This document shows, piece by piece, positions 7,402 to 40,693 of a DNA stretch of 64,000 bases. Source of the DNA: Candidatus Aenigmatarchaeota archaeon. GTDB lineage: Archaea; Aenigmatarchaeota; Aenigmatarchaeia; GW2011-AR5. A program made the translations under genes and the position numbers. Each line of letters begins with the position of its first letter. Positions within the stretch are counted from its first letter, which is position 1. The notes below the pieces were generated by a model. It had not been told where the DNA came from. It made no database searches and saw nothing but the letters and a program-made list of their open reading frames with translations. The stretch lies in NCBI GenBank assembly GCA_016198685.1, contig JACQID010000004.1, positions 117,864 to 181,863 of the forward strand. Reading direction: 5' to 3'.

Positions 7402-8598
7402 TCAATAGCGTCTTCCGAAACTGCGTCTTCTTCCGCCAAACCCGCTGCCGCCTCTTCTTTGGCCGCTGCGGTCGTGCATGCGGATGTTGACTTTTATTTT
7501 CGGGAAATCCGATTCTTCTGCTTTTTCTATGTCCTTGACCTGTCTTATGATACGCCTGAAAGGCTCGTGATCCTTGACAGAAAGCAATGTTATAGCCTTG
7601 CCTTCGGCCTCCATTCTTGCGGTTCTGCCTATCCTGTGCGTGTAGGAGTCAGGGTCATTGGGAACATCGAAGTTGAATATATGAGTCACGTCCTTGATGT
7701 CAAGCCCTCTTGATGCGACATCAGTAGCTACAAGCACGTGCGGCCTGCCCTGATGGAAGCTTTCCATGACTTTCATTCTTCTTGCTTGTGGCATGTCGCC
7801 ATGTATTGCTTCAGCATCAACGTTGTTTTCCTTTAGAACACCAGCGAGTATATCCGCCATTCTTTTGGTGCCTGCGAATACTATTGCGCGAGAAGGTTTT
7901 TCTTTCTTGACAAGATGTACCAAGAGTGACAATTTCTCCTCATCCCTTACGTTATAATAATACTGCTTCAGTTTGTGTTTTGGCACGAAAATTTGGGCCT
8001 TGATTTTTATAGGATCCTTCATGAAGTTCCTTATTATGAACATTATTTCATCGGGTATCGTTGCTGAAAACAGCATGGTCTGCCTTTGCTTCGGCAAGCC
8101 AGACATTATCCTCCGTATGTCATCTATGAAACCCATATCAAGCATCCTGTCAGCTTCATCAAGAACGAAGTACTTGACGCCATGAAGGTCTATTGTTCTT
8201 CTTTCCATGTGGTCGAGTATCCTTCCTGGCGTGCCCACGACGACTTCTGCCCGGCGCAGATGGCTTATCTGCGGCTCTATAGATACGCCGCCGAATACGC
8301 GGCAAACCTTTATACCGCCGAAAGAAACCGAATGCATGAAATCGGCTACTTGGTTGGCCAATTCTCTTGTCGGAACAAGAATAAGTGCCTGTACGCCTCC
8401 ATCGCGTTGCACCCCATGAAGTATAGGAACAGAAAAGGCGAGAGTCTTGCCCGAGCCGGTCATGCTCTGGCCTATAACGTCCTTGCCAATCATTCCCGGA
8501 GGTATAGACTTCTCCTGTATCTCGGTAGGCTCGGTTATGCCAAGCTTGTGTATAAGCTCCAGCATTCTTGGGTCTATGTTCATTTCTTCAAACTTCAT
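7402..8598 (-). CDS. DEAD-box ATP-dependent RNA helicase with C-terminal RGG-rich tail
   Basis: Motifs GSGKT, DEAD, SAT, HGD and RGLD. C-terminal tail SGQRRGGSGFGGRRRSFGRRY. Confidence 0.9.
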   Translation of the reverse strand: MKFEEMNIDPRMLELIHKLGITEPTEIQEKSIPPGMIGKDVIGQSMTGSGKTLAFSVPILHGVQRDGGVQALILVPTRELANQVADFMHSVSFGGIKVCRVFGGVSIEPQISHLRRAEVVVGTPGRILDHMERRTIDLHGVKYFVLDEADRMLDMGFIDDIRRIMSGLPKQRQTMLFSATIPDEIMFIIRNFMKDPIKIKAQIFVPKHKLKQYYYNVRDEEKLSLLVHLVKKEKPSRAIVFAGTKRMADILAGVLKENNVDAEAIHGDMPQARRMKVMESFHQGRPHVLVATDVASRGLDIKDVTHIFNFDVPNDPDSYTHRIGRTARMEAEGKAITLLSVKDHEPFRRIIRQVKDIEKAEESDFPKIKVNIRMHDRSGQRRGGSGFGGRRRSFGRRY

Positions 8599-8775
8599 AC
8601 CAAGATAGGTTAGAACGGAATGGTTAAATACCTTTTACGGATCGAAAGCGCTTAGTTTTAGGCTTCGAAATGATGAAAAATGCATGCAAAAGCTAAAGAT
8701 TTCCTTTGTGCAACGGTCTGATTATCAAAATACACGCCTCTTACAAATAAGAATCATCTGCAAACTTTAAATCAT

Positions 8776-9330
8776 ATGATAAGAATATTAATGCCAATGA
8801 CAACCCATCAGGAAAAAGAGGAAAGAAGGCAGAAAAGAGAGGAAACTGTCGAAGAGGAGCGCAAGAAGCGCGATGCCAAGAAAAAAGTCAAGCAAATGAT
8901 AGTCATTTCTACAGGTCTTGCAATAGTAGCAGTCGTTGCTTTTTTTCTTTCCAACATCTCGCCTGCCATGCCTGACAGGCCTCTGATCGGTGACCATTGG
9001 CATGCAGATTATTCTATAGAAATATGTGGCGAGATGCAGCCTATTATTCCCGAGTTTCCTGGAGGAGTCCACACACACGGCGACGGGAAGATACACATCC
9101 ATCCATACGTCCAGGAAGAAACAGGAAAGCAGGCTAACTTAGCATTGTTCTTCGACAATGCAGGCTTGAAGGTTAGCAATTCTTCTATCCAGATGCCTGA
9201 AGGCGCGGAGATAACGCAATGCAACGGCAGCCGGGCTGAAACATCCGTGACTCTGAATGGAAACGCGCTTGCCGATTATTTGTCTTATGTAATGCAGGAT
9301 GGAGATGTAATCGGCATTAAGTTTTCATGA
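8776..9330 (+). CDS. membrane-anchored His-rich hypothetical protein
   Basis: Charged K/E/R-rich N-terminus, then a TM helix (IVISTGLAIVAVVAFFL), then GDHWHADY...HTHGDGKIHIHP histidine cluster. Confidence 0.45.
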   Translation: MIRILMPMTTHQEKEERRQKREETVEEERKKRDAKKKVKQMIVISTGLAIVAVVAFFLSNISPAMPDRPLIGDHWHADYSIEICGEMQPIIPEFPGGVHTHGDGKIHIHPYVQEETGKQANLALFFDNAGLKVSNSSIQMPEGAEITQCNGSRAETSVTLNGNALADYLSYVMQDGDVIGIKFS

Positions 9331-9378
9331 CCCCAAAAAAGCCGGGAATCGCCTGTTTTATATTTTGCCTGCCATTCT

Positions 9379-10389
9379 ATGAAAATGAAGAGGATGCTCC
9401 TTGCAGAGGAAACGCTGTTCAAGGATGAAGAAATCTTTTCCTTTGACCACGTTCCGGAAGTTTTCTCTTTTCGCGATAACCAGCTCAATGCCATGGCAGC
9501 TTCGCTGAAGCCTGCAAAGCGCAACAGGAAAGCCTCTAATCTTCTTCTCATAGGAGGTCCGGCAACAGGCAAGACTACTGCAGTAAAGATAGTTTTTGAG
9601 CAACTATCCGGGCCTCTGTGTGTCAGGGTAAACAGCGAAATAGCCGCTTCGCCGTATAGGGTTTTTTCGGAAATCCATAAAAAGGTATTCGGATTTCTGC
9701 CGCCGGATACGGGCATATCGCTTCCCGCTATCTACGACAAGATATTCGGCCGGCTTCTCAGGGAAAAGAAGTATATTGTAGTCGCGCTTGACGATATACA
9801 GTATCTGCTTTCAGAGATGAACAAGGTGCTTTATGACCTGCTGAGAGCAGGCGAAAGCTATCCGGGCGCAGGCGTATCGGTCATGGCAATCACGGACAAG
9901 AATATAATGCAAAAGCTCGACGACAAGGTGCGCTCAGTGTTCCATCCGCAGGAAATAAGGTTTCCGGAATACACGGCAGAGGAAACGTTCCAGATACTAA
10001 AGCAACGCCGTGATATAGGCCTGTACGCAGGCGTCCTTGAAGACGCGCTGCTAAAACAAGTGGCAGAGGCTAGTTATGCAAAGCATGATCTGCGTTTTGG
10101 CATAGAAGCCATCCGCAAAGCTGCTGTGAGTGCAGAAGCGGATGCTTCTTCATCAATAGAAAGAAAACATATAGTTCTTGAAGAGACTTCTCTGCCGAAG
10201 GAAGAGTCCGAATTACTCGCATTCATTCCCGCAGAAGGTATAAAGTCAGGCGATCTTTACGCTCTTGTGGAAAGCAAGATGGGATATACCAAGTTTTATC
10301 GTGTTCTGCAAAGGCTTGAAGCCGGGGGCATTATAGAAGCGGAATCTATAAGAGGTGTCGGCAACACTAGATTAATAAAAAAGAGGTGA
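9379..10389 (+). CDS. orc1: Orc1/Cdc6 family AAA+ replication initiator
   Basis: Walker A LLIGGPATGKTT. Walker B VVALDDIQYL. C-terminal winged-helix region. 336 aa. Confidence 0.85.
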   Translation: MKMKRMLLAEETLFKDEEIFSFDHVPEVFSFRDNQLNAMAASLKPAKRNRKASNLLLIGGPATGKTTAVKIVFEQLSGPLCVRVNSEIAASPYRVFSEIHKKVFGFLPPDTGISLPAIYDKIFGRLLREKKYIVVALDDIQYLLSEMNKVLYDLLRAGESYPGAGVSVMAITDKNIMQKLDDKVRSVFHPQEIRFPEYTAEETFQILKQRRDIGLYAGVLEDALLKQVAEASYAKHDLRFGIEAIRKAAVSAEADASSSIERKHIVLEETSLPKEESELLAFIPAEGIKSGDLYALVESKMGYTKFYRVLQRLEAGGIIEAESIRGVGNTRLIKKR

Positions 10390-10393
10390 ATAC

Positions 10394-10567
10394 ATGATAG
10401 GAAAACTTCTCGGTAAGAAGAAAGCTCCTTTCGGCGGTTATTCCATAAGCTTTGCCGGCAGGACAGAAACTGTTGAAGAAATCTTCGGTAACAAGCCCAT
10501 AACTCCTAGTGAGATGACTAAGAAGCTCTGGGAATTTGTCAAGAAGAAGAAACTTGCAAACAGGTAA
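10394..10567 (+). CDS. 57-aa protein with SWIB/MDM2-like C-terminal motif (below track size cutoff)
   Basis: Perfect SD GAGGTGA lies 4 nt before ATG 10394. Protein is MIGKLLGKKKAPFGGYSISFAGRTETVEEIFGNKPITPSEMTKKLWEFVKKKKLANR. TAA at 10565-10567. Confidence 0.35.
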   Translation: MIGKLLGKKKAPFGGYSISFAGRTETVEEIFGNKPITPSEMTKKLWEFVKKKKLANR

Positions 10568-10593
10568 AATGTGTTATTATTTTTCCCATTAAT

Positions 10594-10791
10594 TTAACGG
10601 ATTTTTCTTTTCATTATAACTGCGCCTGCGGCGCCTAAAAGAATTAGCGCCAAGAGCGGCATGCTATAACCGGTGATATCATCTGGCATTTGCAAACCTG
10701 GACTGTCCGGAGCAATGCCGACCGCTATATCGCCGGAGACTTCCCCCTGAATCAGCAATATAAGAAACAGGAGAATCACGACCGGCTTCAT
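10594..10791 (-). CDS. small secreted/membrane peptide (signal peptide plus C-terminal TM and basic tail)
   Basis: MKPVVILLFLILLIQGEVSG ... PLLALILLGAAGAVIMKRKIR. ATG overlaps the stop of the upstream ATPase gene (ATGA). Confidence 0.4.
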   Translation of the reverse strand: MKPVVILLFLILLIQGEVSGDIAVGIAPDSPGLQMPDDITGYSMPLLALILLGAAGAVIMKRKIR

Positions 10792-12260
10792 TTCTTTCCC
10801 CTCGATCGCATGAAGCCTGCTATCATGAGTGAAAGCAAGAAAACTCCTGTGACTGCGGCGGCAAATCTGAATTCAAGGAATGAATAAGCAAATCCCATGA
10901 CAACTGCGAATAATGCACCTCTCTTAATGCTGGAAAAATATGCTTTCATGCCGCGTACAAACCATAATAGCGGGGGGAAATATCTGTACTCATCCCTTAT
11001 GTATATCGCATCGTCCTCTTCTTCAAGGACTATAGGTTTCTTGCGTTCTTGCGCAGGCGTTTCTTCTGATCGCTCGTCTTCCTCTTTTTCTTCTTTTTTT
11101 GCCGGCTCTTTCTGCTTGGTTTCGTGCGGTTTTTCAGCTTTTCTTTCTTTCTTGACTGTTTTCAGGCCTTTTCTTTTCCACAGCGGCGTTATTTTCACTT
11201 TTTCATTGCCATTTTTTGATGAAAGATTGACAAAACCGGTTCCAACTTCAGTGAGGTTCTTGATTTCTTCGAAGTTTATCCCCATTTGCCTGCCTACAAA
11301 GATAGCATCTTTCTCCAATCGGCATTGGAACGCTATTATGCCTCCGACATTTGCAAGGACGGTATCCGAGAAGTCAGAAGGCCTCTGCGAAGACAAAATA
11401 ACTCCTGTGCCGTACTTTCTTGACTCTCTGAGCAGATCATTCAGAGGCGATTTTTCGTCTATGAGTCTGTGTGCTTCATCCACTATGCAATAAAGCACCA
11501 TCTTGTCTGTTTTGCCTCTGGCATAGAGCTCGTACTTTAGTTTATTGATAAAGAACTCAGCAATTGCGTACTTTACCTCTTCAGTTGGCATATTCTTGAG
11601 CTTCAGCACGGTTGTTTCGGCAAAAATGTTCTTGAATGGTATTGCGCTCTTCTTTGAAGTGAAGAAACCGGTATTAAAGAGCGGTCGCAGTCTTACAAGC
11701 AGCGTTTCTATCGTTTGTGATGACCTTTTTTCCTCTTTTAGGTACTCCGCTTTGTTTTCAAGCACGTTTTTTACGTCCTCGAAGGTCGGGGCATCCTGCT
11801 TTTCCATGCTCTTGATGTCTATTCCTTTGTCCCGATAGGCCGAGAGTATGGCGTCTTGTAATACTCCTTCCTGTTGCACGCCAAGCACGAAAATCTTTTT
11901 CAATATGTTTGAGACCTTGTACATTGCAGCTTCGGGTGTTTCGGGGGCATATTCGAGCGGGTTTATCGTCATATTCGTGAAGTCAAGGACATTATCAGCA
12001 ACATTATCGAAGTCCTGATGGAAATCCACAATGAAAGAAGGAACGCCGCCTGCCGAAAGCTCATGAATAATTGCTTTTAGCGTTTCTGTTTTGCCGGAAC
12101 CCGAAGTTCCGACGACCATGAAGTGCGGATTTTTTTCGTTCTTTGGCGCCCATTTTATTTCGTTTCCGTTGTCGCCCTTGCCAAGTATGATCTCCAAAAC
12201 CATCATAATCATTGCACAATGAAGGACATAAAATAATATCACGTCCGTTTTTGTAAACAA
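10788..12260 (-). CDS. DUF87/HerA-FtsK-like P-loop ATPase with K/E-rich linker and C-terminal TM hairpin
   Basis: Walker A VVGTSGSGKT. Walker B CIVDEAHRL. Linker KKEEKEEDERSEE. C-terminal hydrophobic helices. Track start is TTG at 12260; alternative ATGs at 12212/12206/12203. Confidence 0.6.
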   Translation of the reverse strand: MFTKTDVILFYVLHCAMIMMVLEIILGKGDNGNEIKWAPKNEKNPHFMVVGTSGSGKTETLKAIIHELSAGGVPSFIVDFHQDFDNVADNVLDFTNMTINPLEYAPETPEAAMYKVSNILKKIFVLGVQQEGVLQDAILSAYRDKGIDIKSMEKQDAPTFEDVKNVLENKAEYLKEEKRSSQTIETLLVRLRPLFNTGFFTSKKSAIPFKNIFAETTVLKLKNMPTEEVKYAIAEFFINKLKYELYARGKTDKMVLYCIVDEAHRLIDEKSPLNDLLRESRKYGTGVILSSQRPSDFSDTVLANVGGIIAFQCRLEKDAIFVGRQMGINFEEIKNLTEVGTGFVNLSSKNGNEKVKITPLWKRKGLKTVKKERKAEKPHETKQKEPAKKEEKEEDERSEETPAQERKKPIVLEEEDDAIYIRDEYRYFPPLLWFVRGMKAYFSSIKRGALFAVVMGFAYSFLEFRFAAAVTGVFLLSLMIAGFMRSRGKK

Positions 12261-12432
12261 AAATCACTTCTTTGAGTCCAATGCGTAAATTTATATTGTA
12301 AAAAATCGGAATACTTAAATATAACTTCAGGAAATATAATTACAGGTGAACACAAATGGCAGCCAAGAAAGCAAAAAAGAAAAAGTAATTAACTAAATAA
12401 ATCATATATAATTTTTATTTTCTTTTTTTATT

Positions 12433-13140
12433 TCATTCTGTTTTCAGCGTGTAATAAATTCTTCTGTTGTTCTTTCCTTTGTTCTCGAGCTTCAGAAGCT
12501 CGATTATGCCTACTTCTTTTGTATTTCCAACGTGTGTTCCGCCATCGGCTTGCTTGTCAATGTCGCCTATCTCCATGATGTGAAGTTCGTTGACAGAAGG
12601 CGGCAAGGCCTTTGCCAGCTTTATGACGCCTTCTATCTTCATTGCGTCTTCCGTTGGCAAGAAATAGTGCTTCACTTCTATGTTTCGGGCCATCGCCTCG
12701 TTTGCCATCCTGACATATTCCGTTATTTTGTCACGGTCCAAATTCTCCAAAGAAAAATCTATCCTGCTTTCCGCAACGCCGAGCTGGTTTCCGGTTATAA
12801 GAGCCCCGGTTTCCTTGTGCATTATTGCGCTCAGGACATGCGCTGCGGTATGCATTTTCATGAGGGCGTAGCGTCTTGGCCAATCAATAGTGCAATGAAC
12901 CTTGTCGCCTTCCTTCAGGCCTTCCTTGTCTACTTCATGAGACACGTTTCCATCTTTCTTGATGGCAAAAACAACCCTGAACTCCTCATCGCCGCGGCGA
13001 ACCGTTCCCGTATCGCTTGGCTGGCCGCCGCCGCTGGGGTAGAATGCGGTGTTGTCAAGAACTATCAATTTGCCGTCGGCTCTGACAATCGTTGCATCAA
13101 ACTCCTTAAGGTAAGAATCTTCAAGATAAAGAGGGCGCAT
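12433..13140 (-). CDS. alaX: alanyl-tRNA synthetase editing-domain homolog AlaX
   Basis: Zinc motifs HTAAHVLSAIMH and ADGGTHVGNTKEVG. 235 aa. Confidence 0.85.
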   Translation of the reverse strand: MRPLYLEDSYLKEFDATIVRADGKLIVLDNTAFYPSGGGQPSDTGTVRRGDEEFRVVFAIKKDGNVSHEVDKEGLKEGDKVHCTIDWPRRYALMKMHTAAHVLSAIMHKETGALITGNQLGVAESRIDFSLENLDRDKITEYVRMANEAMARNIEVKHYFLPTEDAMKIEGVIKLAKALPPSVNELHIMEIGDIDKQADGGTHVGNTKEVGIIELLKLENKGKNNRRIYYTLKTE

Positions 13141-17163: not shown

Positions 17164-17352
17164 TTAGTCGAGGTCCGTATCTATATCATCCAGAGTATTC
17201 TGAAGACTCTCAACGTTAGTGGCTATATCACCCACTGCTTCGGAAGCCTGTTCCTGCGTTTTCACGGGGTTGTCGTTGCCTATGCAGCCGCTCATGAAAA
17301 CGAGAGAACTGATCACAACGAGCAGCATGAAAACAGCTTTTACGTTCATCAT
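17164..17352 (-). CDS. small lipoprotein-like secreted protein
   Basis: MMNVKAVFMLLVVISSLVFMSGC has a signal peptide plus lipobox-like Cys. ATG overlaps the stop of the upstream large gene (ATGA). Confidence 0.45.
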   Translation of the reverse strand: MMNVKAVFMLLVVISSLVFMSGCIGNDNPVKTQEQASEAVGDIATNVESLQNTLDDIDTDLD

Positions 17353-19523
17353 ATTTCACCTTGTTCATTTATACTTGGCTCTGAAACAACGGGTTCTGAA
17401 GGCTCCCTTCGTGCAGGCGGTTGCGGGTTATTGAAGCCGGATTGAGGCTGGCCCTGGAAAGGCTGTGGCTGAGAGAAGCTTTCACCCTCAAAACCTTGGT
17501 CAGGTGCCGGGTTCCTCGGCCTGAAATTATCTCCCTGAGCTGGGTACTGGATACCCGGACCTTGATTATCTATTGGCATGTAAGGATCTCTGTAATTGTC
17601 GCCGAACTCATCGCTAAAACCGGGTTGCCTGAAGTTTCCAGGTGGAGGCCTGCCGAATTGCTGATCCTGCAGGTCAGTTCTGAATTCATCATCTCTTCTC
17701 ATCCCCTGCTGGCTTCTGTAATCTTGTGGAATTGGCTGATACTGGTCATATTGATTGTTATATTGGAACTGGCTTCTTCCTTCTATCAATGCGGTCAATC
17801 CCTGTTTCGCTTCAGGCGGAAGTCGGTTGCCAAAAGTATCCAGGCACTTTTTGGCGTTTTCGGCATTTTCAAAGCATGCCTGCTTGCAATCCTCGCCCTG
17901 GCATACTCCTTCAACTGCACCGCCTGCCTGAACGCCTTCCTGTTTCATCATCTCGTAAAGTGGCCCTTCACAGTAAGGCAAAACGTCGGTTTCAGGATCT
18001 CTTATGCCCAGGCTGTATTTCTCTATTTTGCATGTCATCGACTGGCTCTCGCTTCCTTGCGTCATGGTTGCCTGAAGTATGCACTTGTTATCTTCGAGTC
18101 CTGTAATCTCAACTGTAGGCCCGTTTCGTCCTTCAGGCAGGAATTTCACGGGGCTGCATATGCGGATTGCCTTGTCAAAGCACCTCTCATCAGTGCCGCA
18201 GTCACTGCCGCTCCCCGAAACTATATTTTGCACATCATCGTTTGAGCTAAGCATCACGTAAACTATGTCTTTTATGGCGACATCCTTGAGATATTTTATG
18301 TCATGTTTTATTTCTGTCATGTCTTCAATCGTAAGGGTGTCAAGCCTTTCTTTCATCTTGTCCTTTATGTCTTGAACGTTGCCCTTGGCAGATTGGAACA
18401 TGTCGGCAACCCTTCTGAATCTGTTCTCATCTGTTGAACCCGTTGATTTATAATAATCAGCGACATCATCTGCCTGCTTGGAAAGTTTATCAAGCTCGAC
18501 CACTAATTTTTCCAATTTGAATGCTATTGACAGTACTTCGGTTGAGTCCGGCACGTTGGAAGGTCTTTCCACGTAGACATCGTTCTCGTCACCCTGACGG
18601 ACGCATTCAGCAAAACTTACGCAGCCGTTGCGGTCTCTTTTGACTATCATCTCGCCGCCGTTCTGATGGCAAGTGCTATACGCAGCATCTTCGACATTCT
18701 GCCTGCAATAATTCTGTTCTGCGCATCTGTAGAAAATGCAGCCGCTTTGGTCAAAATCTTTTGTTATGCTCAGGCCGCGAGAGCTGCACTCATTTTCAGC
18801 CGTTACGCGGGATTGCTGAGTGCTTGGGCATATCTTATTTTGTTCTGTCTGTATGCATGATGCAACGCCGCATCCGTTTTCCTGTCTTACAACGCCCTTG
18901 AGACCTGAAGACTCGCAGCTTCTGAGTGTCGTATCTATCTGTTCGCGGGAGGGGCATTGATCATATTTCTTAAATAGCTGGCCCTGCAGTTGCCCGCCTT
19001 GGTCGAATTGGCAATAGAACATATCGCATCCGTTAGGCGATTTGGAAAATTGGGGCATTCCGCCGCCGTTCCTGCATGCATCAATGCTTTCTTTGGGTGC
19101 AGGCTGGCAGGAGACCGCTCCTTCGCATATGACTCTTACAAAACCGGTCTCGTCACGTTCTTCTCTGCATCCGGGAGGCGGACCTCTGTGCTCAGGAACA
19201 GTTTGGGGAGGCATGCCTTCAGTATCACCACCTTCTTGAGTTCCGTCAGGAGTATCTGCCTCTTGTCTGCTATTTGCATCTTCCGTATCTCCGGCAGGCA
19301 TTTCTTCAGAGGAAGGTTCGGAAATATCATTCGTTGATTCTTCATTTGCAGGCTCCGAAGGTGGTGTTGATTCTTGAGGCGTTGATTCTTCATTTGCAGG
19401 CTCCGAAGGTGGTGTTGATTCTGCTGGCGGCTCTGCAGTTTCGGTCTGGGCAGACGAAACAGAAAGAATTAATATCGCAGCGGCAAATAGAATGAATATG
19501 CTTTTTGTGGAGTTATTGGCCAT
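17349..19523 (-). CDS. large secreted cysteine-repeat protein with P/E/S/T repeats, a coiled-coil segment and a Q/N/P/Y-rich C-terminal low-complexity tail
   Basis: Start moved to ATG 19523 (MANNSTKSIFILFAAAILILSVSSAQT signal peptide). Four ~35-aa repeats of type C..NGC...[FY].C..Q. The final ~140 aa are rich in Q, N, P, G, F, D and Y. No C-terminal TM. Confidence 0.7.
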   Translation of the reverse strand: MANNSTKSIFILFAAAILILSVSSAQTETAEPPAESTPPSEPANEESTPQESTPPSEPANEESTNDISEPSSEEMPAGDTEDANSRQEADTPDGTQEGGDTEGMPPQTVPEHRGPPPGCREERDETGFVRVICEGAVSCQPAPKESIDACRNGGGMPQFSKSPNGCDMFYCQFDQGGQLQGQLFKKYDQCPSREQIDTTLRSCESSGLKGVVRQENGCGVASCIQTEQNKICPSTQQSRVTAENECSSRGLSITKDFDQSGCIFYRCAEQNYCRQNVEDAAYSTCHQNGGEMIVKRDRNGCVSFAECVRQGDENDVYVERPSNVPDSTEVLSIAFKLEKLVVELDKLSKQADDVADYYKSTGSTDENRFRRVADMFQSAKGNVQDIKDKMKERLDTLTIEDMTEIKHDIKYLKDVAIKDIVYVMLSSNDDVQNIVSGSGSDCGTDERCFDKAIRICSPVKFLPEGRNGPTVEITGLEDNKCILQATMTQGSESQSMTCKIEKYSLGIRDPETDVLPYCEGPLYEMMKQEGVQAGGAVEGVCQGEDCKQACFENAENAKKCLDTFGNRLPPEAKQGLTALIEGRSQFQYNNQYDQYQPIPQDYRSQQGMRRDDEFRTDLQDQQFGRPPPGNFRQPGFSDEFGDNYRDPYMPIDNQGPGIQYPAQGDNFRPRNPAPDQGFEGESFSQPQPFQGQPQSGFNNPQPPARREPSEPVVSEPSINEQGEI
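19332..19427. repeat. 2 x 48-bp tandem repeat inside the secreted protein gene
   Basis: CGTTGATTCTTCATTTGCAGGCTCCGAAGGTGGTGTTGATTCTTGAGG repeated from 19332 and 19380. It encodes the PPSEPANEESTPQEST repeat. Confidence 0.7.
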
Positions 19524-19569
19524 ACAGAGTTTTGGATTTGAGTGATATATATAGTTATCGTGATTTGGC

Positions 19570-20049
19570 ATGAAAACTGAATTGATTGCGCTTGCAGGGA
19601 TTGGATTATTTTTACTTATTGTTTTGGTTCGCCCGACCGCTCCTGCTTCTTTGCCGGAGATATCAGTCGAGGGTTTCGTGCCCGTGAAAATAGAAATCAA
19701 CGGAAGCGATATGATATTGTCAGGCGAATGCAGAAGCATCTTAATGGCAGTAAGCGAACATCAGGCGCTTTCCATCGCAAGTGCATTGAACAACGAATAT
19801 TATATCAGGCCGCTCACGCACGATCTTATGAGAGACATATTTGAGAATTATAAGATAGAACTGAATTCGGCAAGAATAGATTCTTTTACAGACGGTGTAT
19901 ATACTGCCAAGATATACGTGACCAAGGATTCAAAAATTCTTGAAATGGATGCAAGGCCAACCGATGCGGCAGGAATTGCATTGAGGATGGGAGTGCCGCT
20001 CTATTTCAATGAAGATCTATTGAAGATCAACGGTGAAAAAATATGCTGA
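19570..20049 (+). CDS. membrane-anchored bifunctional-nuclease (BFN/DUF151) domain protein
   Basis: N-terminal TM helix. HQALSIASAL, RPLTHDLM, ARIDSFTDGVYTAKI and EMDARPTDAAGIALRMGVPLY match the DUF151 pattern. Confidence 0.55.
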   Translation: MKTELIALAGIGLFLLIVLVRPTAPASLPEISVEGFVPVKIEINGSDMILSGECRSILMAVSEHQALSIASALNNEYYIRPLTHDLMRDIFENYKIELNSARIDSFTDGVYTAKIYVTKDSKILEMDARPTDAAGIALRMGVPLYFNEDLLKINGEKIC

Positions 20050-34250: not shown

Positions 34251-35161
34251 GTCATCTCCTCTACTGCCTTGAAAATAGGAGCTATCAGCCTGTCTTTCTT
34301 GGATATTTCCGCTTCATGTTTGACGTAATCCATCATCAATGCTGCAACGTTCGTTCCGGTTGCATGAGTTATGCCTTCAAAGTGCACGTTCACATTCGCC
34401 TCTATGACTACAGGCCCTTTCTTGCCTTCTATTATGTCTATCCCTGCTATGCCAAGACCCAATGCTTTAGCGCTGCGTATAGCAAGCTTTGTCATTTCTT
34501 GACTGAGTCTTATTTTCTTGCCGGTTCCGCCGGCGCCTATATTGGCCCGTCTTTCTCCTTTCTCGGCTATCCTTTTCATTGAAGCTGGCACATCGTGCCC
34601 GATTACAAGGGCTCTTATGTCTTCGCCCGGGTTGCCGACAAATTCCTCAAGCATTATGGGCTGCTTCATGCCTTCTATCGTATCGAGTATAGGCAAGGCC
34701 GAAGACGGGCTTTCTGCAAACATAACGCCCTTGCCTAATGAACCCTGCAGCAGCTTTATCACTACAGGATACTTCATGCTTTTGATTATAGGTTTCATGC
34801 CCTTTACCGTTGAACTAAGGTAGCTCAGGGGCGTTGGTATGCCGGCTTTCTCAAGCTTCAATAATGTAAGGAATTTGTCATGCGTTATTATTATAGATTC
34901 CGGCGTTATAGGCATATACGTTTTGCCTTCCAAAAGCTTGCATATCACATAACCGTAATTTCTATAGGTTCTCGGTATTCTGGGAAAGACGATATCGTAC
35001 GATGATAAAGGAGTGCCCTTGAGAAGAACAGGGTCGCCGTTCTGTATTCTTACGTCAGGTATCTGGGCATAAGTAACCTTCTCGAATCTTTTCTTCGCTT
35101 CTTCAAGAAGCCAAAGATCCTGAGGCTTCTTCTCCCTTGAGCCCAAGATACATATTTTCAT
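34238..35161 (-). CDS. RimK-type ATP-grasp ligase
   Basis: EDIRALVIG, RANIGAGGTGKKI and GIDIIEGKKGPVVIEANVN motifs. 307 aa. Confidence 0.75.
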   Translation of the reverse strand: MKICILGSREKKPQDLWLLEEAKKRFEKVTYAQIPDVRIQNGDPVLLKGTPLSSYDIVFPRIPRTYRNYGYVICKLLEGKTYMPITPESIIITHDKFLTLLKLEKAGIPTPLSYLSSTVKGMKPIIKSMKYPVVIKLLQGSLGKGVMFAESPSSALPILDTIEGMKQPIMLEEFVGNPGEDIRALVIGHDVPASMKRIAEKGERRANIGAGGTGKKIRLSQEMTKLAIRSAKALGLGIAGIDIIEGKKGPVVIEANVNVHFEGITHATGTNVAALMMDYVKHEAEISKKDRLIAPIFKAVEEMTWGR

Positions 35162-40114: not shown

Positions 40115-40693
40115 ATGAAAACTATTAGTGAGATTAATGGGATTATACATATGCGATTCTTCGATTCCTCTTTCGGCGAAATCCTTACGTCACAGATAGC
40201 ATCTGTCGGAGGCGGCCTCATAGCCGGTACGATTCTTGCCCTTTATACCGATAAATTGCTCCTGCTTCCAGGAATGCTTGTCCTTATACCGGGATTCTTG
40301 GAGATGCGGGGGAACATAAGCGGCTCTTTTTCATCACGCCTGACATCCGGTCTCTTTCTGGGCGCAATAAAGCCAAAAAATCTATGGTCAAGCATTGTAA
40401 AAGGCAATCTTGTGGCTTCTTTCATTCAGGCTTTATTCATTTCTCTATCCCTCGGAATTATCGCATTCGTTTTCAATTACCTAATTTTCGGTGTTTCGTC
40501 TTTGCAAATAATTGCTATTCCCGTTATTGCCGGCGCCATAGCAAATGCAATAGAAATACCGCTTGCACTTTTTGCGACATTCTACTTATTCCGGAAAGGC
40601 CATGATCCGAACAACGTCATGGGCCCGCTTATCACGTCTACGGGCGATGTGATAAGCATAGTCTCGCTTCTTGCAGCCGTGGCGATAATATGA
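40115..40693 (+). CDS. MgtE transmembrane-domain-only protein (no cytoplasmic CBS domains), copy 1
   Basis: PGFLEMRGNISGS ... GHDPNNVMGPLITSTGDVISIVSLL matches the MgtE integral-membrane domain. Confidence 0.6.
   Translation: MKTISEINGIIHMRFFDSSFGEILTSQIASVGGGLIAGTILALYTDKLLLLPGMLVLIPGFLEMRGNISGSFSSRLTSGLFLGAIKPKNLWSSIVKGNLVASFIQALFISLSLGIIAFVFNYLIFGVSSLQIIAIPVIAGAIANAIEIPLALFATFYLFRKGHDPNNVMGPLITSTGDVISIVSLLAAVAII

Follow-up and report, generated by a model that had tools for sequence, protein, structure and literature searches.

A stand-alone HerA/FtsK-superfamily ATPase with a predicted C-terminal membrane anchor in a Candidatus Aenigmatarchaeota archaeon

The 64,000-nucleotide stretch of Candidatus Aenigmatarchaeota archaeon contig JACQID010000004.1 analysed here, referred to as the window, contains on its minus strand a gene for a 474-amino-acid (aa) ATPase whose 3' end overlaps a 65-codon open reading frame (ORF). 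Comparison with homologous motors suggests that the ATPase is, on balance, probably a stand-alone, tail-anchored nucleic-acid translocase of the HerA/FtsK superfamily at the membrane. The first-pass annotation had taken an interest in the pair as a motor with a secreted partner peptide, and this idea does not hold.

The ATPase gene and its motor domain

Both ORFs lie on the minus strand exactly where the first-pass annotation had placed them. An alternative ATPase ORF read from an upstream TTG at 12260 (10788..12260, minus strand) would add 16 non-conserved residues; the other candidates for the start are a cluster of ATG codons at 12212/12206/12203. Since homologues begin MIMMALE.. and MMLEIF.., and since the NCBI model of the 100% identical protein P0001 ('ATP-binding protein [Ca. 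Aenigmarchaeota archaeon]', 472 aa) starts at 12206, the start was placed at the ATG cluster. Walker A is therefore found at residues 35-42 and not ~50 residues in, as had been given earlier, and the accompanying conclusion that a HerA-type N-terminal barrel is absent is strengthened. The features of the two ORFs are listed below; residues are numbered on the 474-aa protein except where P0001 numbering, which begins two residues later, is indicated.

10788..12212, minus strand: ATPase coding sequence, 474 aa, stop codon included, from the ORF list and the match to P0001.
11172..12212, minus strand: P-loop motor domain of the HerA/FtsK superfamily, residues 1-347, without an N-terminal HAS barrel.
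12087..12110, minus strand: Walker A, GTSGSGKT, residues 35-42; G, G and GKT invariant in 69 homologues.
11673..11936, minus strand: predicted four-helix insertion between core strands, residues ~93-180.
11469..11480, minus strand: Walker B, DEAH, residues 245-248; D, E and H invariant in the same 69 homologues.
11379..11429, minus strand: RESRKYG (residues 262-268), candidate arginine-finger region, then strand-4 SSQRP with the sensor-1 Gln (residues 275-278).
10977..11171, minus strand: predicted flexible linker rich in K and E, residues ~348-412, from composition and a predicted local distance difference test (pLDDT) below 50.
10791..10976, minus strand: predicted membrane module at the C-terminus, in which the amphipathic helix PPLLWFVRGMKAYF precedes two hydrophobic helices; terminus RSRGKK.
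10788..10791, minus strand: ATGA overlap, in which the ATPase stop TGA (10790-10788) shares bases with the ATG of the small ORF (10791-10789).
10594..10791, minus strand: small ORF, 65 codons, with a signal-peptide-like N-terminus, a Pro/Asp-rich segment, a transmembrane (TM) segment and a KRKIR tail.

Judged from its motifs the motor is complete, with Walker A, Walker B, the arginine-finger region and the sensor-1 Gln intact. The catalytic residues are invariant across the 69 aligned homologues; in RESRKYG and SSQRP the E, K, G and Q are invariant and both R are at least 90% conserved. The motif logic applied here (arginine finger, sensor-1 Gln) is that of the HerA/FtsK clade in PMC10853773. 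The AlphaFold2 model built with the 69-homologue alignment (pLDDT 87.5) has a compact domain at 1-345 with insert helices at 91-106, 110-126, 142-158 and 164-178 (P0001 numbering), and a HerA/FtsK type with a 4-helix insert is described in PMC10853773.

Pfam DUF87 (43.5 bits, cut-off 23.2) and HerA_C (52.1 bits, cut-off 22) both match above their cut-offs, in agreement with the DUF87/HerA-FtsK-like label first given to the protein, and these scores, the motifs GTSGSGKT, DEAH, RESRKYG and SSQRP and the fold matches place it in the FtsK-HerA superfamily. Among PADLOC profiles the DndH C-terminal region matches at E 4e-35 and mad8 at E 1e-26. The 69-homologue profile aligns over positions 7-280 with PDB 7es4, the C-terminal domain of DptH/DndH, at E 5e-31, and the alignment spans Walker A, the helical insert and Walker B. 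This domain, part of the DndFGH/DptFGH DNA-restriction system, is a homologous HerA/FtsK module with ~20-22% identity to the window motor. EccC is among the matches in structure-database comparisons. Sequence comparison thus indicates a stand-alone member of the HerA/FtsK/VirB4 ring-ATPase superfamily, nearest to DptH-C and VirB4-C, and by analogy it most likely works like the DptH-C, VirB4-C and HerA motors.

In its architecture the ATPase differs from each of these systems. DptH itself is ~1,700 aa long, has helicase-like, TRD, inactive methylase and restriction endonuclease (REase) domains before the ATPase and works with DptF and DptG; the window module stands alone, begins at residue 1 and ends in the predicted anchor, and neither a ~1,300-aa N-terminal multidomain region with REase nor dnd/dpt neighbours (dptF/dptG) are present. 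VirB4, CedB and CedD are the ATPases that serve type IV secretion and DNA import by the crenarchaeal Ced system. In CedD and CedB a TM segment and a VirB4-like domain stand at the N-terminus, and their partners are CedA (VirB6-like) and pilins. The NCBIfam CedD, VirB4, CedB, TraC and HerA models are matched 10- to 40-fold below their cut-offs and in their ATPase part only. For CedD the match covers 222-516 of 527 and for VirB4_plasma 496-810 of 894, with VirB4/CedB/CedD scores of 54-67 bits against cut-offs of 590-700, including pairs of 67 against 600 and 54 against 700, so that the N-terminal domain of these proteins is missing from the window ATPase, in which the anchor is C-terminal. No VirB6/CedA channel, pilin or relaxase gene was found in the window neighbourhood or in related loci.

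Canonical archaeal HerA acts in HerA-NurA-Mre11-Rad50 end resection. The AlphaFold2 model of the window ATPase has no HAS barrel, relatives with a short N-terminus share its start, the NCBIfam HerA models score far below cut-off (NF040937, 37.7 against 800; NF040819, 19.3 against 970), and no NurA or Mre11/Rad50 neighbour was found in the window or in 31 loci. Pfam FtsK_SpoIIIE matches only the Walker A region (residues 41-68) at 23.9 bits, just under the cut-off of 24. FtsK and SpoIIIE are built as N-terminal anchor, linker and C-terminal motor; the window ATPase is the mirror image, with motor first and anchor last, lacks an N-terminal TM segment, a C-terminal winged helix-turn-helix (wHTH) domain and an alpha or gamma domain, and has a motor from the HerA/VirB4/DptH side of the superfamily. 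The N-terminal TM anchor, all-alpha domain and linkage to a relaxase or type IV secretion system that mark type IV coupling proteins (VirD4/TrwB) are also lacking. No description of the family was found in the literature on DPANN with HerA, VirB4 or DUF87, which agrees with the earlier remark that it was not recognised as a described archaeal system, and the YjgR/DUF853 literature held nothing informative on it. The DPANN ATPase family represents a new variant of architecture in a superfamily that is itself well known.

The C-terminal membrane module and the ATPase family

A long K/E-rich linker and a C-terminal hydrophobic hairpin had been proposed for the ATPase and both are recovered. Residues 346-412 contain 14 K, 16 E, 6 R and 4 D in 67 residues (60% charged), and AlphaFold2 gives residues 356-405 of P0001 as disordered (pLDDT <50), the linker being ~55-65 aa long. 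Beyond it the P0001 model is again confident across 406-471, with helices at 411-423, 427-443 and 446-471 (pLDDT 92-96). In Kyte-Doolittle plots with 15-residue windows the two hydrophobic helices peak at 1.9 (window starting at residue 432) and 2.35 (starting at 450). Because basic residues flank both sides of these helices, a hairpin with both ends in the cytoplasm is compatible with the sequence.

A first homologue search gave 93 clusters, with names mostly from Aenigmarchaeota and Woesearchaeota, and a full hidden Markov model search of 1.84 billion representatives gave 660 proteins at E <= 1e-30. The 234 relatives that were fetched have the following architectures.

Short N-terminus and TM tail (the window type): 50 of 234.
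Short N-terminus and soluble tail: 29 of 234.
Short N-terminus without a tail: 15 of 234.
N-terminal extension of 100-1000 aa: 85 of 234.
DndH-sized, with >1000 aa before the module: 23 of 234.
Partial sequences: 32 of 234.

The ~94 relatives with a short N-terminus all start within a few residues of one another, ~30 residues before Walker A. After the charged linker, 43 of the 69 aligned homologues have 1-3 predicted TM segments; about 13 have instead a coiled-coil-like tail of ~110 aa rich in K and E, and four a double CxxC zinc ribbon. Tail lengths range from 83 to 255 aa among relatives, and the linker varies in both length and sequence. In one Woesearchaeota locus (L028, 5983-7594) the ATPase frame stops behind the motor, at 330 aa, and an overlapping frame encodes the coiled-coil tail, through either a frameshift or an assembly error.

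N-terminally extended relatives occur in Conexivisphaerales, Bathyarchaeota and Thermodesulfobacteriota. Four sister proteins with 31-44% motor identity (P0056, P0059, P0087 and P0117) have N-terminal extensions in place of the C-terminal tail. That of P0056 (44% identical motor) has a repeated helix-strand pattern in model md4c4b1717bb3 and can be read as several winged-helix units. P0087 carries a PD-(D/E)XK nuclease domain, P0117 has weak, sub-threshold RAMA and DUF4357 matches in its extension, and the N-terminus of P0059 (L045, 6001-7545) is weakly EVE-like, an EVE gene lying directly upstream. Such fused and extended relatives fit the account in PMC10853773, according to which HerA/FtsK modules, some with the four-helix insert, have entered new combinations with nuclease and DNA-binding domains and were 'captured' by DndH. 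Sequence identity among the relatives tracks taxonomy, which suggests that the family is vertically inherited in Aenigmarchaeota and related DPANN lineages.

The proposed mode of action follows from these comparisons. The motor would assemble into a ring on the cytoplasmic side of the membrane, hexameric as in its relatives, a behaviour expected from the conserved trans-acting Arg residues and from the homologues. The flexible K/E-rich leash would hold the motor at the membrane while ATP is used to translocate nucleic acid, most likely double-stranded DNA. By sequence, the nearest motor relatives (DptH/DndH, VirB4-C and HerA) are DNA-directed modules, and PMC10853773 argues that HerA/FtsK modules act as DNA pumps. 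DNA is the favoured substrate because the close structural relatives are DNA motors and because sister proteins are fused to domains that were read as DNA-binding or nuclease-type. Candidate roles would be the clearing or segregation of DNA at the membrane or division site, or the movement of DNA across or along the membrane.

The small ORF and neighbouring genes

The layout of the 65-aa product (signal peptide, Pro/Asp-rich middle, TM segment and KRKIR) is as it was first described, the parts being in order MKPVVILLFLILLIQGEVSG (signal-like), DIAVGIAPDSPGLQMPDDITGYSM (Pro/Asp-rich), PLLALILLGAAGAVIM and KRKIR. The ORF corresponds to the NCBI hypothetical protein HY364_01250. Among 5.8 billion proteins the peptide matched only itself, and tblastn against the window and all fetched loci found no paralogues. 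A 70-aa positional orthologue with the same ATGA overlap and layout, which gene finders also call, is present in locus L001 and the identical contigs L038-L044, where the ATPase is 89% identical. Aligned over 63 aa, the two peptides are 40% identical; the E value, from a small database, is 7e-7. The slot as a whole has 57% nucleotide (nt) identity between the window and L001, against 82% for the ATPase gene and 90% for a neighbouring 57-aa gene, and it differs in length by 3, 6 and 3 nt internally and by a terminal sum of 15. As the net length differences are in frame at only 57% identity, the comparison argues for a product that is translated but very loosely constrained. The eight contigs with the L001-type pair are identical in sequence and thus hold no variants for a ratio of non-synonymous to synonymous change (dN/dS).

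Outside this lineage the small ORF is not seen. Where the ATPase is 80% identical (L033-L036) there is no small ORF, only a stub of 14 codons and after it 365 nt of unrelated spacer, and where it is 66% identical (L029) there is nothing comparable. A search for the pair in other genomes had been suggested, and 185,579 GTDB species genomes were scanned with family-specific peptide patterns. Every downstream region of the 32 loci obtained was inspected and only L001 had an equivalent of the small ORF. Since the ORF is thus not conserved beyond a single positional orthologue, its pairing with the ATPase as a partner peptide is unsupported.

The translational coupling suggested earlier has a real basis in the 4-nt ATGA overlap, preceded by a Shine-Dalgarno (SD)-like GAGGGG 8-13 nt upstream. 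Both the overlapping ATG and the purine-rich run are, however, dictated by the coding of the ATPase terminus ...RGKK-stop (AGG GGA AAG AAA TGA). The same AAATGA is found in L033, which has only the stub; other 4-nt gene overlaps exist within the window (e.g. 35158-35161 and 40690-40693); and antisense ORFs of similar size to the small ORF occur in the same stretch. For these reasons the overlap is weak evidence for a functional partnership. No archaeal CTERM model (PGF-CTERM, PEF-CTERM type) matched the small ORF, as would be looked for in an archaeosortase or sortase substrate; a bacterial NPXTG anchor match was below threshold (16.9 bits against 23.5, E 0.006). The small ORF quite likely encodes a genuine, young, fast-evolving small membrane protein. 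It lies in the gap separating a convergent pair of genes, is confined to a single narrow lineage and does not qualify as a conserved subunit or substrate of the ATPase.

The window is core chromosome and includes genes for RNA polymerase B and A', EF-2, UvrABC, DnaK, PPDK, AlaXM and a canonical Orc1. Locally the genes are arranged as AlaXM, ATPase, small ORF, convergent 57-aa gene and convergent Orc1, and the synteny of AlaXM, ATPase, 57-aa gene and Orc1 is kept from 66% to 100% ATPase identity. The flanking features are as follows.

9379-10389, convergent to the ATPase gene: orc1/cdc6, 336 aa, ~400 nt from the ATPase gene.
10394-10567, plus strand: gene for a 57-aa basic protein, starting 4 nt after the orc1/cdc6 stop.
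12356-12388, plus strand: tiny ORF, MAAKKAKKKK, in the AlaXM-ATPase spacer (12213-12432), with GGTGA 6 nt upstream.

Orc1 matches NF001624 end to end (323 bits) and TIGR02928 at 181.7 against a cut-off of 181.3. It has no inserted inactive REase (iREase) domain, no REase gene is present in the neighbourhood, and it stands next to the ATPase in close relatives only. The 57-aa protein has a weak, sub-threshold SWIB/MDM2-like match, is also encoded in L029 and L033-L036, and in this lineage could be a small protein, associated with chromatin or replication, that partners Orc1. The AlaXM-ATPase spacer is conserved and non-coding, carries TATA-like boxes for the ATPase gene and is not a decayed coding region. 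Within it the tiny ORF is kept as MAAKKKKKK in L001 and MAAKKKKK in L033, the surrounding intergenic stretch being strongly conserved. An Rfam scan of 10300-12600 gave zero matches, and a scan for bacterial-type promoters and terminators gave signal no higher than shuffled controls.

All-versus-all ORF clustering and a Pfam census of 31 loci revealed no neighbour family common beyond close relatives; the 89 flanking genes in the census are housekeeping in character (ScpB, Orc1, RadA, exosome subunits and GDPD among others), and none was present at more than 2-3 loci. Genes of AlaX/AlaRS type are found 0.2-5 kb from the ATPase in the window (12433-13140) and in L001, L004, L021, L030 and L045, that is, in several distant lineages (Aenigmarchaeota, one metagenome-assembled genome labelled Thaumarchaeota and another that is Woesearchaeota-like); this could be an old synteny remnant or a coincidence. 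In L010, L012 and L013 (~7557-8072) scpB, encoding a subunit of the SMC-ScpAB condensin, lies 26 nt downstream of the ATPase on the same strand. It is the sole neighbour that hints at chromosome segregation and is restricted to one Aenigmarchaeota sub-lineage. In L037 (3489-4065; ATPase 70% identical) a PIN/MazE toxin-antitoxin pair is directly downstream, the PIN gene overlapping the ATPase 3' end in the slot occupied by the small ORF in the window. Elsewhere in the window, at 17349-19739 on the minus strand, is a gene for a 796-aa protein with a hydrophobic N-terminal segment, many Cys in repeated patterns and long low-complexity ends rich in Pro, Gln and Glu, which has zero Pfam matches. 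A search of 8550-12500 for repeats that might border a mobile element gave only short AT-rich matches of chance quality, and no relative of the ATPase was found in the 2.9 million contigs of IMG/VR.

Alternative explanations and significance

The proposal with which the analysis began, a minimal secretion, translocation or conjugation ATPase with the small secreted peptide as its substrate or membrane partner, is very unlikely to be correct. It would account for the ATGA overlap with its SD-like motif, for the predicted membrane association of both products and for the retention of the arrangement in one other species-level lineage with its frame preserved at 57% nt identity; the EccC matches are also a reminder that some superfamily members export proteins. 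The peptide is nevertheless absent at 80% and 66% ATPase identity and at ~29 other loci, no homologue besides itself exists in 5.8 billion proteins, and the ATG and purine run are by-products of RGKK-stop coding. Its own Sec-type signal would in any case make a dedicated ATPase unneeded, and genes for a channel, a pilin, a VirB6/CedA-like protein or a relaxase are lacking nearby. An inovirus-like remnant or module, with a pI-type morphogenesis ATPase followed by a major-coat-like peptide, is extremely improbable. The peptide layout of signal peptide, acidic N-terminus, TM segment and basic tail resembles a pVIII-type coat, and the order of an ATPase with a TM segment before such a peptide is superficially like that of pI (Zot-type) and pVIII. 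Inovirus sequences have moreover been reported in Aenigmarchaeota (Roux et al. 2019, PMC6813254). This hypothesis was rejected because of the absence of any Zot/pI match in Pfam or PHROGs and of any relative in IMG/VR; the flanking genes are core chromosomal and syntenic, and there is no compact cluster of short genes, integrase or convincing flanking repeat. That the gene is a truncated pseudogene of a larger HerA or VirB4 gene, a possibility which had been raised earlier and which the missing N-terminal domains of both might favour, is scarcely credible. It is refuted by the same start and length class in ~94 relatives, the invariant catalytic residues, the conserved non-coding upstream spacer with its TATA-like boxes and the fold predicted at high confidence.

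A role in defence, in which a HerA/FtsK module of the type 'captured' by DptH/DndH and MADS would act on foreign DNA at the membrane as a sensor or a pump, with the variable C-terminal module (here TM helices) as effector or localiser, has to be weighed more carefully and is considered doubtful. The best profile matches are to defence proteins (DndH, E 4e-35; mad8, E 1e-26), 23 relatives are DndH-sized and many N-terminal extensions were read as DNA-binding or nuclease-type, the C-terminal modules vary, the distribution is apparently patchy (32 GTDB species matched the patterns) and a few loci have toxin-antitoxin or restriction-related neighbours (PIN/MazE in L037, T1RH-like in two). In addition, orc1 is 400 nt from the ATPase, and PMC10853773 describes defence operons that combine a HerA/FtsK gene with an Orc/Cdc6 protein carrying an iREase insert, an active REase and a wHTH. 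These operons do not apply here because the window Orc1 matches the replication model end to end without a nuclease insert, and a 'capture' operon of this kind was retained as no more than a minor rival: Orc1 is canonical and convergent, lacks the iREase domain that marks defence-type Orc/Cdc6, adjoins the ATPase in close relatives only and is not accompanied by an REase gene. The neighbourhood lacks nuclease, Sir2, dptFG and mad genes and consists of housekeeping genes; the synteny is stable over a wide range of identity, identity follows taxonomy as in vertical descent, and no relative occurs in IMG/VR.

Several observations also weigh against the favoured reading of a tail-anchored nucleic-acid translocase. 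DNA translocation is a prediction from homology. Members of the superfamily also move proteins (EccC/EssC, and VirB4 in pilus biogenesis). No genomic association points to a specific process. As the first hydrophobic C-terminal helix is only marginally hydrophobic on the Kyte-Doolittle scale, the anchor could be a single TM segment with an interfacial helix. In relatives the C-terminal appendage is swapped for a coiled coil, a zinc ribbon or nothing, and defence proteins, too, are typically laid out with a variable module C-terminal to a conserved ATPase. Finally, 32 of 185,579 GTDB species representatives matched two family peptide patterns in a scan that is limited by those patterns, and such an apparently patchy distribution would be unexpected for an essential housekeeping motor.

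On present evidence the tail-anchored ATPase adds a further uncharacterised branch to an ATPase superfamily that is large and well known, and it shows that the ATPase module of DptH/DndH also exists in free-standing form with interchangeable C-terminal appendages (TM hairpin, coiled coil, zinc ribbon). A more far-reaching interpretation, at present an unlikely one, is that of a DPANN-specific tail-anchored DNA pump with a cellular, non-defensive role, either as a functional counterpart of FtsK/SpoIIIE that would clear or segregate chromosomal DNA at the division membrane or as the motor of a minimal route for DNA uptake or exchange at the site of contact with the host. If a membrane-tethered DNA translocase did operate in normal cell biology, the protein would be a candidate for an FtsK-like membrane DNA pump, a role without a known archaeal player. 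If it served DNA uptake or exchange, it would have a bearing on the way in which episymbiotic archaea with reduced genomes obtain DNA or nucleotides, and such a route would be relevant to the poorly understood dependence of DPANN on their hosts.

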